Source: an uncultured delta proteobacterium
Lineage (GTDB): Bacteria > Myxococcota_A > Polyangia > Fen-1088
Direction: 5' to 3'
Length of the DNA: 64,000 nt
Assembly (NCBI GenBank): GCA_963767925.1
Contig: CAVYGB010000001.1
Span: forward strand, 320,001-384,000
Part shown: piece after piece, positions 28,259 to 34,151 of the stretch
Layout: each line of letters begins with the position of its first letter
Position numbering within the stretch: the first letter of the stretch is position 1
Program-made: the position numbers and the translations under genes
Notes under the pieces: generated by a model
Databases searched by the model: none
What the model was told of the DNA's origin: nothing
The model's input: only the letters and a program-made list of their open reading frames with translations

Positions 28259-29260
28259 TCAACCGAAGATGCGCCCGAACGGGGCGCGGAACCGGTCGAG
28301 CAGGTGACTCTGCCCCACCTGCCAGCCAGCGACCACCCCGGAATCCACCAGCTTCTGGTAGGGAACCCAGCCGCCGTCGCTCTCCTTGGGGCTGCCCGGC
28401 TGCACGTTGGGGTCGTCGTCCCAGGGGTTGTAGAGCTTGACCATCGGCACGCCGTCGCGCACCTGCGCGTCGACAACCGAATAGCTGTGCCACCACACCA
28501 GATCCATGTCACCCAGGGCCTTCTGCTTCTTGTCGTCGGCGCCGCCCTTCGGGTCGGCGATCATGTCCAGCACCACCGGCGCGCTGAAGGCCAGCTTGCC
28601 CTGGAGCTGCTCGAACGAGAGATTCCGGGCCGGGGTGAAGGTGGCCTCGCGCCCGGTCAGCTCTTCCATGGCCGCCTCCGCGTTGCCGCCGTTGCCGATC
28701 TTCGAGTAGCCGCCCTTCATCTGGGCGTAGGCCTTCTCGATGATGCGCGGCCACAGCTCGGTCGTGCCGCCGACAACGTCGCCGGGCCCGGCCGCCTGCT
28801 GCGAGAAGCTGCTGGCGTCGACGACCTGATCCTTGCGCTCCAGCCGGCCCGAGGCCGGGTTGCGCTCGAACAGCTTGACGTTGAAGGTGCCGTCGCCGTT
28901 GTCGGTGATCATGTTCCGCACGAAGGTGGGGTCCGCCCTGGCCAGGGCCCCCATCGTGCCGACCAGATAGCAGTTGGACAGCCCTTCCTGGTCGATGTCG
29001 TCCCAGTCGACGACGTGCCCATCGCCGGCCCCGAGGACGAAAGCCGCCGTCGGCCCCGACACCGGCACCTGGACATCCTGCGGGGAGGGCGCCGCGGCCG
29101 CCCCGAAGGCCGCCCAGTCGATCTCGTCGAGCCACCGCGACGCCCCGCCCTCGTCCCGCTCGGTGACGGCCGGCGAGAAGCCCGTCGTGTGGTCGAAGTC
29201 TCCCGCAGGGGACGCCCCCGCAAACGGTTCATATCGAGACGAGATGGAATCCAGACGCAT
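28259..29260 (-). CDS. Calpain-like C2-family cysteine protease
   Basis: DIDQEGLSNCYL (Gln, Cys), ELWPRIIEKAYA, HSYSV (His), LYNPW (Asn). Confidence 0.85.
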   Translation of the reverse strand: MRLDSISSRYEPFAGASPAGDFDHTTGFSPAVTERDEGGASRWLDEIDWAAFGAAAAPSPQDVQVPVSGPTAAFVLGAGDGHVVDWDDIDQEGLSNCYLVGTMGALARADPTFVRNMITDNGDGTFNVKLFERNPASGRLERKDQVVDASSFSQQAAGPGDVVGGTTELWPRIIEKAYAQMKGGYSKIGNGGNAEAAMEELTGREATFTPARNLSFEQLQGKLAFSAPVVLDMIADPKGGADDKKQKALGDMDLVWWHSYSVVDAQVRDGVPMVKLYNPWDDDPNVQPGSPKESDGGWVPYQKLVDSGVVAGWQVGQSHLLDRFRAPFGRIFG

Positions 29261-29422
29261 GGGGCTCTCCTGCAGGCTGAGTGTCACCGGCCGTCGACGC
29301 GACCGTCCCCCCTGCTTCGGCCCCTCATCGGGCAAGTTGCGTATTCTTCGAGCCTCACCAGCTCCCCCCCGCCCAGCGTGTCCCGGCGCACGCCGCAGAC
29401 TTGTCGATGAATGCTCGCGGGG

Positions 29423-31058
29423 CTAAAGCGCGGCGAGGAAGGTGTGGGCGCGGTGGAGCTGGGCGAGGGTGGCGATCCGTTCGGGGGTGGGGCCGTCGGT
29501 GGTGAGCAGGGCCGGGAGCTCGTCGCAGAGGGCGGCGAGGTGGGCGAGCTGGGGTTCGTCGAGGGCGTCGGCCAGGGGGTCGAGGCGGCTGGCGAGGGTG
29601 GCGGGGCGGTCCTCGTGCAGGGCCTTGCGGGCGGCCAGCGCGAGCTGCTCGAGGGGTGTCCGGGTCCGCGGCGTGGCGGCGGCGCTGGCGAGACGCGTGG
29701 CGACCCGCTCCACGGCGGCAGCGGCCGGACGCGACACCTCATCGTGGAGGAGCCGCCAGCCGATCCGGAATAGGAGGTCGCAGCTCAGCGCCTCGAGGCG
29801 TTTCACGGCGCTTGCTCCTGCCGGCGCGCGGCCGCCTTCGTGTTCATCCTTGCGTTCGCCGTCGCGACCCTGGCGCGGGTGGGGGTCGCTGAGCGCGTGC
29901 TCGAGGCCCAGGCTGCAGATCGCCAGCGCGGCCTGGGCGGCGTCGACCGGGCGCAGGCGCGCGCCGCGTGCGCCGACGCCGGCGAGGAGCACGTTGGCGA
30001 GGTAGCCGAGCTCGCGCATTCGATCGGCGTGGCGGTCGACGTCGCGCGCGGCGAGGTCGACGAGGGCCCGGGCGAGCAGGGTGTGCGCCCGCCGGCTGCT
30101 CTTCCCGTCCCGATTCGAGGAGCCGCGCCGCCGGCGCGTCGCCCGCCAGCTCGTCGAGCAGCGCGCGCAGGCTGGTAGGCTCGGGCGCGCTCGGTGCCGT
30201 GCCGGCCGACCGGGTGGTGGTGGCCGCGAGGGGCGTCGCCTGGTATTCGCGAAAGAACGCCGCCGTGACCGGATCGCGTGAGGGCGCCTGGAGCAGGCTC
30301 GCCACGTCGCCGGTGCGGGCCAGCGCGAGGAAGCTCCGGGCCGACGCCGCAGCGACGAATCCGGAGCGCGCGCGGCTGTCCTCGCGATCGGCGGCGGCAT
30401 CGGCCTGGAGCATCTCCTCGGAGGTGAGCACCTCCCACAGGCCCCCCTGGCCGTAGACGTAGTCGCTCGTCACGCGCCACAGCCGCTCCAGCATCGGCTG
30501 CAGGGCGTTGCTGTGCCGCTCGTCGAGGGCGGTCAGCACGGTGGCGACCGCCTCCCAGCTGTCGGCGCGCCGCCCGATCACGCAGTAGTCACCGAGCTCG
30601 AGGTACGGACTGTCCTCGACGACCTTCTCCAGCGGCACCTGGCCTTCGCCCTCGGAGATCAGCAGCGCCAGCTCCTCGAGGCTGATCACCAGGATGTGAT
30701 GGTGCAGGGCGAGCTCGACCATCTCCTCGGGCAGCTCGGCCAGCTTGTCGGCGGCGAAGCGCTCGCCGGCCTCGAGCATGACCTCGAGCCACAAGGTGAA
30801 GCGCGCGGCGTCGAACCGCTCGTCCTCGCCGGGGCGCTCGCTGCGCCAGAGGTCCTCCTCGAAGACCCGGCGGAGCTGGTCGACGGTGGCCAGCGCCACC
30901 AGCTCGCCCGCGTCTTCCAGGCCAATGCGATCGATGAGCCCCAGCAGCGCCGCGGGCGGCAGCGCCTGGACGGCGCCGACCAGGCCGGGCTGGTCGAGGA
31001 TTCGCGCCAGCAGGTTCTGGGGATTCGCGGGCGTTCGCGGCGCCAGTGGTTTTGTCAT
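29423..31058 (-). pseudogene. DUF6178-like protein, frameshift near 30100
   Basis: IGLEDAGELVALAT.DQL..DLW N-terminus; [21 protein letters not shown] continues in another frame. Confidence 0.55.
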
Positions 31059-31428: not shown

Positions 31429-32748
31429 TCACGGGGACAGGCGCTCGAGGTCGCGGGGGAAGGTGGTGGCGAGGCGGATGTTGGGGAGGCGGCAGAGCTG
31501 CATCAGCAGCCGTTCGAGGCCGATGGCGAAGCCGCCGTGGGGGGGCATGCCGTGGCGGAAGGCCGCCAGGTAGGCCTCGAACGGTGCCTGCGGAAGGCCC
31601 GCCCGCGCGAGGGCGGCCAGGTAGTCGGCGTGGCGGTGCAGGCGCTGGCCGCCGGTGACCAGCTCGGTGCCCCGGAAGAGCAGGTCGAACGAGTTCGAGT
31701 GCTCGGGCCGGGCCGGGTCGGGGTGGGTGTAGAACGGCCGCCTGGACATCGGGTAGCCCATCACGAACAGGAAGTCGCTGCCCTGGGTCTCCTTCGCCCA
31801 TTGACCGAGAGTGCGTTCCTCCTGGGGCGACAGATCGGGCTCGGCGCGGCTGTCCACGCCCGTCAGGCGGAGCGTCAGCTCGTGCGCCTCGGTGAAGTGC
31901 AGGCTCGGGATCGTGGCCGGGACGGCAGGCACCTCGACGCCCAGCAGGGCGAGGTCAGCGGCGTGGTGCGCGGCCAGGCGGGCGAAGATGCCGGCCAGCA
32001 CCTCGCGCAGCAGGGCCATGACCTCGAGGTGGTTTCGGATGAAGCCCAGCTCGACGTCGAGGCTCACGTATTCGTTGATGTGGCGGGTTGTGTCGTGGGG
32101 CTCGGCCCGGAAGACCGGAGCCACCTCGTACACCCGCTCGAACACCCCCACCATGATCTGCTTGTAGAACTGGGGGCTCTGCGCGAGGTAGGCGGTACGC
32201 CCGAAGTAGTCGACGGCGAACACGTTGGCCCCTCCTTCGGTGGCCGAGGCGACGAGCTTGGGGGTCTGGATCTCGGTGAAGCCGGCCTCGTCGAGCGTGG
32301 CCCGGAAGCCGGCCATCGCCCCGGCGCCCAGCCGCAGCAGCGCGCGCCGGGAAGGGTGGCGGTTGGCCACGACGGCGTGGTCGAGCAACACGGGCAGGCT
32401 CGCGCGCAGCTCACGCTTGTGCAGCGCCAGCGGCGGCAGCTCGGTGGCGAGCGAGAGGACCTCGATCTTCAGGTCGTGCAGCTCGGCGCCGCCGGGCGCC
32501 TGGGGGGCGGCCAGCAGCCGGCCCTCGACCTGGATCACCGTCTCCAGCGCGGCGCCGGCTTCGATCAGGACGTGCACCTCGGCTTCCGACTCGGCGACGG
32601 CCTGCACGAGGCCGCTGCCATCGCGCACCACCAGGAAGTTGAGGGCGCCCATGCGCCGCCAGGAATGCAGCCAGCCTTGTACGCACACGCGCTGGCCAGC
32701 GTGCGTTTGCACCAGCGCGTACACCTCGGCCAACCGGACCCGTTCCAT
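31429..32748 (-). CDS. aspS: Archaeal-type (short, probably non-discriminating) aspartyl-tRNA synthetase
   Basis: 439 aa with no GAD insert; YLAQSPQFYKQ, FRAEPHDTTRH, GGQR, GMPPHGGFAIGLERL, FPRD. Confidence 0.92.
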   Translation of the reverse strand: MERVRLAEVYALVQTHAGQRVCVQGWLHSWRRMGALNFLVVRDGSGLVQAVAESEAEVHVLIEAGAALETVIQVEGRLLAAPQAPGGAELHDLKIEVLSLATELPPLALHKRELRASLPVLLDHAVVANRHPSRRALLRLGAGAMAGFRATLDEAGFTEIQTPKLVASATEGGANVFAVDYFGRTAYLAQSPQFYKQIMVGVFERVYEVAPVFRAEPHDTTRHINEYVSLDVELGFIRNHLEVMALLREVLAGIFARLAAHHAADLALLGVEVPAVPATIPSLHFTEAHELTLRLTGVDSRAEPDLSPQEERTLGQWAKETQGSDFLFVMGYPMSRRPFYTHPDPARPEHSNSFDLLFRGTELVTGGQRLHRHADYLAALARAGLPQAPFEAYLAAFRHGMPPHGGFAIGLERLLMQLCRLPNIRLATTFPRDLERLSP

Positions 32749-32763
32749 CGAGAGCCTCCAGAA

Positions 32764-32810
32764 CAGCGGGTCTGCCGTGGACGCGAGAAGACGCGCCGGC
32801 AGACCCGCTG
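32764..32810 (-). promoter_or_regulatory. Perfect 14-bp hairpin between the leader peptide and the aspS SD
   Basis: CAGCGGGTCTGCCG / CGGCAGACCCGCTG, followed by TTCT-GGAGG-N6-ATG. Confidence 0.8.
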
Positions 32811-32811
32811 G

Positions 32812-32850
32812 TCAGGCGCGCTTCTCGAGATCGTCGTCGTCGTCAGGCAT
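32812..32850 (-). CDS. Asp-rich leader peptide MPDDDDDLEKRA
   Basis: ATG CCT GAC GAC GAC GAC GAT CTC GAG AAG CGC GCC TGA, GGAG 7 nt upstream, directly 5' of aspS. Confidence 0.8.
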   Translation of the reverse strand: MPDDDDDLEKRA

Positions 32851-32978
32851 GTGTGTGCTCCGGCGAGAATTCAGAATAGCGCAGCCGCGGGAACGCGCGA
32901 CTGTTTTTGAGGACGGATCCGGCCCGGCCGCGTGGGAAAAAGCAACAACTCGGCCGGCGCATCGTAATCATTGGGGTG

Positions 32979-34151
32979 ATGACAAGCGCTTCGCTGATGC
33001 GGCTGGTTACGGTATGTGCGCTCGGCTCCGGGCTGATCGCGCAGAGGGCACAGGCCCAGGAGAGCGCCGGCGCCGGAGCGGGCGCCGCGCTGAAGCCGGA
33101 GAGCGACCTCATGAAGCGCATCGACAAGGCCGTCGTGGGCGGCGGCTTCGAGATGGAAGGCTACTGGATCTGGTGTCCCACGGTGACCAAGGGGGACGAC
33201 GGCCTCTTCCACATGTTCGCCTCGCGCTGGCCCAAGCGGTTGCCGTTCCACCCGGGCTGGATGGTGGCCTCCGAGGTGGTTCACGCCACCAGCAAGACCG
33301 CGGAGGGGCCCTACCGGTTCAGCGAGGTGGCGCTGCCCGCGCGCGGGCCCCAGTACTGGGACGGGCGCTCGACCCACAACCCCAAGATCGTGCGCCACGG
33401 CGCCACCTGGGTGCTCTTCTACATGGGCTCGACCCACCCCTTCGACGAACCGAAGCCGGAGCAGCTCACGCTCGATTCGCACTTCACCACGCTGGCCCGG
33501 GCCAGCAAGCGGGTCGGGGTGGCGACCGCCCGGAGCCCCTTCGGCCCCTGGACCCGCAAGGACGTGCCGGCGCTGACCACCAGGCCGGGGACTTACTACA
33601 GCTTCCTCACCTCCAACCCGGCGCCCTGGATCGAGAAGGACGGCAGCGTGGTGATGGTGTTCAAGTCGCGCGCCTACAAGGACAAGTACCCCTTCCAGAC
33701 GCCGATGAACCTCGGGGTGGCGCGCGCGCCCCACTTCGACAAGCCGTTTTCGGTGGTGACCGAAAAGCCCATCTTCGGCGTCGGCCACGGGGGTGAGGTC
33801 GAGGACCCGTACATCTGGAAGGACGGGCAGGGCTTCCACATGATCGCCAAGGACCAGCGGGGCGACGTCACTGGCGAGCGCCACGGCGGCCTCCTGGCGC
33901 ACTCTCCCGACGGCGTGGCCTGGAAGGTGGACCCGGCCCCCCGGGCTTACAGCAAGACGCTCACCTTCACCGACGGCAAGGTCCAGGTGATGGGTCAGCT
34001 CGAGCGCGCCTCGGTGCTGGTGCAGGACGGGGTTGTGACCCACATGTTCTTCGCGGCGATGGACGGCTCGGGCGGCTTCCAGAACGGGACCCGCACCTGG
34101 GCCCAGGTGGTGCGCCTCAAGCCCCAGCGCCCGACCGCCGCCGCCCGCTGA
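32979..34151 (+). CDS. Secreted five-bladed beta-propeller glycoside hydrolase (GH43-like clan)
   Basis: Signal peptide; YWIWCP, FHMFASRW, THNPKI, SNPAP, EDPYIW, LER. Confidence 0.75.
   Translation: MTSASLMRLVTVCALGSGLIAQRAQAQESAGAGAGAALKPESDLMKRIDKAVVGGGFEMEGYWIWCPTVTKGDDGLFHMFASRWPKRLPFHPGWMVASEVVHATSKTAEGPYRFSEVALPARGPQYWDGRSTHNPKIVRHGATWVLFYMGSTHPFDEPKPEQLTLDSHFTTLARASKRVGVATARSPFGPWTRKDVPALTTRPGTYYSFLTSNPAPWIEKDGSVVMVFKSRAYKDKYPFQTPMNLGVARAPHFDKPFSVVTEKPIFGVGHGGEVEDPYIWKDGQGFHMIAKDQRGDVTGERHGGLLAHSPDGVAWKVDPAPRAYSKTLTFTDGKVQVMGQLERASVLVQDGVVTHMFFAAMDGSGGFQNGTRTWAQVVRLKPQRPTAAAR

Follow-up and report, generated by a model that had tools for sequence, protein, structure and literature searches.

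The short reading frame and the synthetase gene that it precedes

The sequence analysed here, referred to as the window, is a stretch of 64,000 nucleotides (nt) from an uncultured delta proteobacterium (Myxococcota_A; Polyangia; Fen-1088; GenBank assembly GCA_963767925.1, contig CAVYGB010000001.1, positions 320,001 to 384,000). Its minus strand carries the gene of an aspartyl-tRNA synthetase (AspRS; aspS) preceded by a very short open reading frame (ORF), and this leader, together with the RNA helices that follow it, is the subject of this study. A preliminary description, made from the sequence alone, had put the region forward as a candidate Asp-sensing, ribosome-mediated attenuator composed of a TATTCT hexamer, a GGAG Shine-Dalgarno (SD) sequence, a 12-codon ORF with five consecutive Asp codons, a spacing of 63 nt to the synthetase gene and two interleaved helices. 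All positions given for these elements were matched on the minus strand (Table 1), and the leader peptide reads M-P-D-D-D-D-D-L-E-K-R-A. The helices were also seen as described: segments 1 and 3 pair over 13 base pairs (bp) with one bulged U (helix 1:3), segments 2 and 4 pair over 14 bp without mismatch (helix 2:4), and segment 3 lies in the loop of helix 2:4. The 1:3 duplex, tested in windows of 17–20 nt because longer windows had proved too noisy (shuffles as good in up to 114/200), has a computed energy of -24.7 kcal/mol, and none of 500 shuffles of segment 3 was as good. The 146-nt region as a whole folds at -67.4 kcal/mol (z = -3.5; 0/200 shuffles fold as well). A search of sequencing runs for the window sequence returned no RNA run; its only matches were two DNA runs from soil, at 0.05 of the words.

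The identification of the downstream gene as an aspartyl-tRNA synthetase gene was supported and could be made more specific. The encoded protein scored 523 bits against NF003483 (cut-off 353) and 377.1 bits against TIGR00458 (cut-off 368.4), and the controlled gene is thus an archaeal-type AspRS gene whose product is nominally non-discriminating, the charging of tRNA-Asn being read from the model match.

Conservation of the leader and covariation of the two helices

The leader is retained in a second genome of the same genus (G001; locus L002), which keeps the GGAG, the ATG and the leader MPDDDDDPEKRA. A wider survey covered 155 homologous loci with at least 150 nt of upstream sequence, 300 nt being inspected. 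As the preliminary description had anticipated for orthologous short aspS genes, a small ORF with at least four Asp in six codons was found at 16 of the 155 loci, against none on the reverse complement; when either Asp or Asn (D/N) was accepted, the figures were 24 and 0. D/N runs of at least three residues occurred at 24/155 loci as compared with 1/155 on the reverse complement, and other residue pairs gave no comparable excess. An ATG-started, D/N-rich leader is present in 44 of 45 instances of the RNA motif described below. The 42 distinct leaders have 6 to 20 codons, of which 35% are Asp and 11% are Asn codons, with GAC, GAT, AAC and AAT all used, and an SD-like 4-mer stands ahead of 40 of them. 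The other two frames of the same leaders contain 0% D/N and 75 stops in 1250 codons. It is these relatives, rather than the window alone, that make the case against chance: judged from sequence comparison, a poly-Asp leader followed by two interleaved helices is not a chance arrangement.

The Asn codons of the relatives may be informative in themselves. Chloroflexi are reported, in the available part of the source, to lack asparaginyl-tRNA synthetase (AsnRS; PMC2494555), and AsnRS scored over the cut-off in 5 of 33 genomes carrying the motif. By a hand count that includes the window, leaders with at least two Asn codons were found in 10 of 27 carriers lacking AsnRS and in 0 of 6 bearing it. 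Asn-codon content therefore tends to track AsnRS absence, a trend seen among related genomes and in small numbers.

To describe the RNA family, a covariance model was built from a trimmed core alignment of 16 sequences, used in place of a MAFFT alignment of whole leaders from which RNAalifold had recovered just 6 pairs. The model matched 19 of 162 sources (homologous loci) at E < 1e-5, and four loci beyond these matches (L091, L097, L148 and L073) have the same 1-2-3-4 layout by eye. The window's own 9.3-Mb genome contains one significant match, the next (G000:C8:1668657-1668745, minus strand) scoring 21.9 bits at E = 0.014. The Chloroflexota class that contains Dictyobacter, taken from the Dictyobacter alpinus locus, was then sampled with 151 genomes. 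Matches were obtained in 55 of them, a single one in 54 cases, and the tally includes one unpublished genome (G183) that was left out of later steps. Among the 45 aligned instances, the AspRS gene lies 14 to 178 nt downstream in 44, and the remaining locus ends after 127 nt. As far as these genomes tell, the motif is linked exclusively to the archaeal-type AspRS gene.

Both helices covary, as the preliminary description had also anticipated. The statistics were computed on 43 distinct rows of an alignment that the model had fitted to helix 2:4, which favours that helix; helix 1:3 lies outside the model. Over both helices 90.0% of cells are paired, as against 33.9–47.2% when the partner is slid, double changes occur in 17 of 23 pairs, and 121 cells are compensated as compared with 44.7 +/- 5.3 in shuffles, none of 500 of which reached that number. 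Taken separately, helix 1:3 has 87.4% of cells paired and double changes in 7 of 12 pairs, and helix 2:4 has 92.9% of cells paired and double changes in 10 of 11 pairs. An alignment-free comparison was made on 13 non-redundant sequences, after removal of five near-duplicates. The cognate 1:3 and 2:4 duplexes were better than those with swapped partners (0/20000 permutations as good), and an outward extension of helix 2:4, in which the linker pairs with the stretch after segment 4, is likewise conserved (0/20000).

Rfam 15 contains no leader family matching the window at E <= 10, the matches returned being chance-level miRNA and snoRNA models far below their gathering scores, and 20 loci of the class gave no family match at the gathering score. 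At another locus (L233, positions 41-116) the mir-5928 model (gathering score 59) matched a near-perfect palindromic hairpin on both strands, with scores of 58.6 and 57.0 bits; in a bacterium such a resemblance is surely fortuitous and due to a long inverted repeat.

Four successive segments that pair as 1:3 and 2:4 also have the topology of an H-type pseudoknot, and the two helices might coexist as a static fold that merely structures the 5' untranslated region, acting as a roadblock or stabiliser, in which case the ORF ahead of it would be incidental. Some members have linkers long enough to be considered in this respect, with 2:4 loops of up to 38 nt and 7–22 nt from the stop codon to segment 2. 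In the window, however, linkers of about 4, 0 and 6 nt would have to serve stems of 13 and 14 bp, and by the general geometry of pseudoknots such short linkers cannot span the grooves. A static fold would, moreover, leave unexplained why 40–44 of 42–45 instances retain the ORF together with an SD and a D/N bias. We consider a static pseudoknot very improbable, and we infer from the 0–6-nt linkers that helices 1:3 and 2:4 exclude each other in the window.

The T-box in series, the second leader class and the origin of the gene

Upstream of the leader, many of the relatives have a second regulatory element. T-boxes were searched for with Rfam in E-value mode, a search prompted partly by GGTGGTACCACGA motifs seen upstream, and were obtained at 37–88 bits in relatives, all below the Rfam gathering score of 93; standard annotation thus misses the T-boxes of these Chloroflexota because their scores fall below that threshold. 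Four of 7 scanned members of the class have a T-box immediately ahead of the leader (misses L002, L124 and L165), as do 18 of 20 further loci (misses L207 and L219), and in several leaderless relatives a T-box directly precedes the AspRS gene. In all three T-box alignments inspected, the putative specifier reads GAC, at a position that we take to be the specifier from T-box anatomy as we know it. A GAC specifier indicates that the AspRS locus of these Chloroflexota is tuned to the charging of tRNA-Asp. The window itself gave no T-box at E <= 10 (32000-33600), and L002 gave none at E <= 0.01. The intergenic space of the window, about 158 nt, has no room for a T-box; in this genus the device stands alone and is Asp-only. 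The archaeal type of the AspRS, the mixture of Asn with Asp codons in relatives and the position of the device mostly behind an Asp T-box are three points that go beyond the preliminary description.

Other homologous AspRS genes are preceded by leaders of a second class, which have longer ORFs ending in ...NNNDND-P-G-A-P-P-G-R-P-A-M followed by a canonical GC-hairpin and U-tract; in the protein tree they fall into a single clade (support 100). The leader of the window is of the terminator-less, interleaved kind and so distinct from these canonical-terminator leaders. Both Dictyobacter loci, L047 and L056, have a tRNA gene immediately past the AspRS gene and encoded on the other strand.

An acidic run might also act through the nascent peptide rather than through codon supply. 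Intrinsic destabilisation of the ribosome, as in mgtL, would then report ribosome stability (e.g., in response to Mg2+), with translation aborted before segment 1. The window leader does begin M-P-D-D-D-D-D, 70 of the 583 leader codons are Glu codons, and destabilising sequences are defined as negatively charged with intermittent prolines in the part of the source available (10.1101/2021.02.02.429294). Yet 67 of the same 583 codons encode uncharged Asn, interspersed with Asp, the related second-class aspS leaders are dominated by Asn (NNNDND), and the device was found only ahead of the enzyme that charges tRNA-Asp and tRNA-Asn, behind an Asp-specific T-box. That Asn codons are mixed in, and that the device is tied so strictly to one enzyme, points to codon supply as the main signal, and a nascent-peptide sensor seems quite improbable to us.

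The AspRS gene looks horizontally acquired in the window's genus, because its close homologue is restricted to that genus (G001, 79% identity), the other near relatives are from Chloroflexota and the tree nests it among them. The best identity was 28–36% in 23 other-genus genomes of the family and 16 genomes of the same class, and the nearest relatives outside the lineage, almost all Chloroflexota, have 55–71% identity. A FastTree phylogeny of 160 proteins places the window and G001 as a sister pair (support 98) nested with metagenome and Chloroflexota rows. On this account, the window shows that the gene and its sensor can travel together between distant lineages. The window's own genome (a 13-contig assembly) encodes a full AsnRS (633 bits) and three asnB-type genes. 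The bacterial-type aspS is matched there in at least 6 pieces in different frames and gatB in three pieces (G000:C8:1370744-1372538 and G000:C10:1195492-1196933), which reflects either frequent indel errors in the assembly or real pseudogenes. Should the bacterial-type aspS be genuinely defective, the organism would have no AspRS other than the leader-controlled one.

The divergent neighbour upstream has no Pfam hit and resembles glycoside hydrolase family 43 clusters (protein atlas score 0.97). Downstream of the synthetase gene are genes for a calpain-family cysteine protease domain protein and a DUF6178 protein, an accessory-looking neighbourhood that is consistent with an acquired region.

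Table 1. Elements of the aspS leader, its neighbours in the window and related leaders at homologous loci (L numbers). GC3, GC content at third codon positions; MFE, minimum free energy fold.
Feature	Location	Strand	Remarks
-10-like hexamer TATTCT	32873..32878	minus	weak promoter candidate only; 4/6 positions match consensus
Leader SD GGAG	32858..32861	minus	7-nt spacer to leader ATG; also kept in L002
Leader ORF MPDDDDDLEKRA + TGA	32812..32850	minus	12 codons plus stop; ATG at 32850, TGA at 32814-32812
Five consecutive Asp codons (GAC x4, GAT)	32830..32844	minus	proposed sensing site
Segment 1 CGAGAAGCGCGCC	32815..32827	minus	leader codons 8-12; 5' arm of helix 1:3
Segment 2 CAGCGGGTCTGCCG	32797..32810	minus	5' arm of helix 2:4, inside loop of 1:3
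Segment 3 GGCGCGTCTTCTCG	32784..32797	minus	3' arm of helix 1:3, inside loop of 2:4; G32797 in common with segment 2
Segment 4 CGGCAGACCCGCTG	32764..32777	minus	3' arm of helix 2:4; then TTCT, then aspS SD
Leader stop to synthetase ATG (32748)	32811..32749	minus	63 nt
Synthetase-gene SD GGAGG	32755..32759	minus	6 nt to its ATG; partly paired in full-length MFE (probability 0.70)
Archaeal-type AspRS gene	31429..32748	minus	439 aa; NCBIfam name aspartate--tRNA(Asn) ligase; GC3 0.94
Divergent upstream gene	32907..34151	plus	414 aa; GC3 0.93
Calpain-family and DUF6178 protein genes	28259..29335, 29844..31058	minus	downstream of the AspRS gene
T-box leader, L229	1635..1887	minus	Rfam E-value mode; these four among others
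T-box leader, L223	1662..1952	minus	Rfam E-value mode
T-box leader, L043	1139..1457		Rfam E-value mode
T-box leader, L134	1170..1458		Rfam E-value mode
Second-class leader ORF, L117	1258..1341		approximate; before homologous AspRS gene
Second-class leader ORF, L177	1352..1432		approximate; before homologous AspRS gene
Second-class leader ORF, L185	1324..1410		approximate; before homologous AspRS gene
Second-class leader ORF, L188	1354..1407		approximate; before homologous AspRS gene
tRNA gene, L047	2931..3003	minus	opposite strand to AspRS gene
tRNA gene, L056	2914..2986	minus	opposite strand to AspRS gene

Geometry of the proposed switch, possible read-outs and comparison with known systems

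Our reading, to which we give a probability of about 0.7, is that the leader may act as a ribosome-read, two-state RNA switch which would report the decoding of Asp codons (in the relatives, of Asp and Asn codons) and set the output of the archaeal-type AspRS. The spacing of the elements in the window is compatible with such a function: segment 1 follows the first Asp codon at a distance of 15 nt and the last at 3 nt, the first base of the stop codon comes 1 nt past the end of segment 1, and segment 2 begins 7 nt past that base. The preliminary description had proposed folding the RNA with the ribosome footprint masked. This was done as equilibrium folds of 18 sequences, assuming a footprint that reaches 12 nt past the A-site codon, and in nascent RNA a stall on early D/N codons did favour helix 1:3. 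When the RNA ended before segment 4, helix 1:3 was part of the MFE in 16 of the 18 sequences with the ribosome on the first D/N codon, in 15 with the ribosome on the second, and in none when it stood on the final D/N codon or had reached the stop. It can thus be argued, from the geometry and from these modelled nascent-RNA folds, that a stall would favour 1:3, a direction on which the preliminary description had not decided.

In the mechanism that we propose, the first ribosome would stall on early Asp codons when charged Asp-tRNA is scarce, with a footprint ending before segment 1. Segment 1, left free, would capture segment 3 as it emerges from the polymerase, ahead of segment 4. Segment 2 would then be held in the loop of 1:3 and formation of the more stable hairpin 2:4 would be prevented (ON state). 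With plentiful Asp-tRNA, the ribosome would reach the stop codon and mask segment 1 along with some of segment 2; helix 1:3 would be blocked and hairpin 2:4, with its outward extension, would form (OFF state). Uncharged tRNA raises expression through a T-box, and we take 1:3 as the ON state because the T-box in series would raise expression when tRNA-Asp is uncharged. Stalling on Asp codons would in this way induce aspS, as the preliminary description had supposed. The choice between the folds must fall during transcription, because helix 1:3 is thermodynamically out of reach once 2:4 exists, and we favour a co-transcriptional decision.

Several observations weigh against a switch of this kind. 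A D/N leader was missing within 300 nt at 129 of the 155 homologous loci, which were counted as misses. The TATTCT hexamer, presented earlier as -10-like, is indeed present, and L002 has TATCGT at a similar distance; however, its match to the consensus is partial and the promoter scan of the locus called no promoter. With segment 4 present, helix 2:4 was the MFE in 14 of the 18 sequences, so that 1:3 would have to rely on a putative kinetic trap. The terminator scan of the window (32600-33100) called no terminator, the tail after segment 4 being TTCT, and no member of the class has a U-tract after segment 4 by eye, whereas the T-boxes and the second leader class of the same organisms end in clear terminators. 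The SD pairing probability, averaged over the family (n = 18), was 0.59 in free folds and 0.52 with 1:3 forced, being lower in 11 of the 18; no conserved complementarity was detected between segments 1–4 and the ribosome-binding site (RBS; permutation fractions 0.13–0.37); and the gene starts anywhere between 16 and 96 nt past segment 4, depending on the member of the family. These results also bear on how hairpin 2:4 could be read out. A canonical terminator was rejected as the read-out on the outcome of the scan. The caution of the preliminary description over its weak U-tract (UUCU) thus holds. Sequestration of the SD is unsupported as the read-out, both by the comparison of SD pairing between the two states and by the complementarity permutations. 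Within the proposed switch, hairpin 2:4 might quite conceivably be a co-transcriptional stop or pause that needs no U-tract and is possibly factor-assisted; it is also conceivable that it hinders initiation at the nearby RBS, and there is a slimmer chance that it acts as a long duplex, either by being cleaved or by making the mRNA less stable.

The same data can be read in purely translational terms, after the model of ermC or of the mycobacterial poly-Cys short ORFs, helix 2:4, its extension and pairing of the leader's 3' half with the spacer hiding the aspS RBS, and a stalled ribosome or helix 1:3 exposing it. Part of the folding results fits this possibility: in the MFE of the window the 3' half of the leader pairs with the stretch from the SD to the ATG, the paired probability of the aspS ATG drops from 0.39 to 0.01–0.07 once a ribosome occupies the middle or the last Asp codon, and SD pairing has a probability of at least 0.55 in 14 of the 18 free folds. 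The conserved outward extension of 2:4 and the absence of a U-tract fit it too, and stalled ribosomes that unblock an RBS have a precedent in the available text of 10.1101/834739. However, the lack of conserved complementarity to the RBS and the nearly equal accessibility of the SD in both states speak against this scheme. In the window SD pairing has a probability of 0.70 in the free fold and of 0.55 with 1:3 forced; in the group of L128 the SD is open in both states (0.09–0.30), and in L087 and L101 the gene starts 68 and 96 nt past segment 4. In addition, any stall that comes after 2:4 has formed is too late for 1:3, and a conserved 1:3 would be of little use translationally. We regard a purely translational output as rather doubtful.

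Alternatively, the long 2:4 duplex could be a processing or stability element, for instance the substrate of a double-strand-specific RNase, and the ribosome-set choice of fold would tune the half-life of the mRNA. Helix 2:4 with its conserved extension amounts to about 20–30 bp in many members, longer than the neighbouring T-box terminators, and an effect of this type would be independent of the variable distance to the start codon and would call for no U-tract. This explanation, although compatible with the variable layout, is pure inference, and the helix core of the window itself is just 14 bp; we consider it improbable.

Returning to the ribosome-read switch, its features can be joined with those of the T-box into a broader picture that we put forward only tentatively, as a possibility that may well prove wrong. 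The interleaved device would be a terminator-less, ribosome-based second input which, with the Asp T-box, would place the enzyme charging tRNA-Asp and tRNA-Asn under two-sensor control: the T-box would watch only tRNA-Asp, and the Asn codons would add Asn-tRNA-Asn, the end product of transamidation. As a portable module it would have accompanied the gene into an unrelated lineage that has AsnRS, shedding the T-box and the Asn codons to become an Asp-only sensor. The read-out would be a topological lock over a stop without U-tract or over an RNase-sensitive duplex, a mechanism so far undescribed among leader peptides.

A literature search, which did not reach subscription journals and supplements, gave no description of a leader peptide that senses Asp or Asn, nor of one that controls aspS. 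Shewanella aspS is listed merely as 'tRNA synthetase leader' in the part of PMC2659441 available, and no such element is reported in Actinobacteria in the part available of PMC1262725. Taken together, the conservation, covariation and gene linkage suggest that the element is very probably a real, conserved ribosome-sensed RNA switch and a new form of leader-peptide control. The class is common (55/151 genomes of one Chloroflexota class) and is present in cultured strains (Dictyobacter, Tengunoibacter), and it is therefore directly testable. It raises the questions of how a ribosome-set RNA switch acts without a terminator, why a T-box and a leader peptide stand in series before one gene, and whether the codon make-up of the leader follows the host's route to Asn-tRNA.

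Leader-peptide attenuation is textbook knowledge for Trp, His, Leu, Thr, Ile/Val and Phe and for pheST. In the E. coli pheST (pheM) attenuator and the trp/his/leu/thr attenuators, a leader contains a run of cognate codons and the position of the ribosome picks one of two exclusive folds. The present device resembles pheST in that a short leader with a cognate codon run would control an aminoacyl-tRNA synthetase, and the window has its own leader RBS (predicting translation), cognate codons and two folds that would exclude each other, as classical attenuators do. Unlike pheST and the trp-type systems, it would sense Asp and Asn, it has no U-tract after the second hairpin and thus no intrinsic terminator, and its helices 1:3 and 2:4 are interleaved with one common base, whereas those of classical attenuators share a strand (2:3 vs 3:4). 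The mycobacterial poly-Cys leaderless short ORFs, in which, according to the available text, a stalled ribosome directly blocks an RBS-hiding duplex (Canestrari et al., 10.1101/834739), have in common with the window a high GC content, a run of codons for one residue and a proposed terminator-free control by stalled ribosomes. The window leader differs from them by its own SD, a second conserved helix (1:3) and the lack of conserved RBS pairing. Finally, like the Asp-specific T-box (RF00230), which controls the same gene in relatives and reports the charging of tRNA-Asp, the device would adjust AspRS; but in the T-box uncharged tRNA is sensed directly and a canonical terminator closes the element, whereas the leader device would use the ribosome and could read both Asp and Asn tRNAs.

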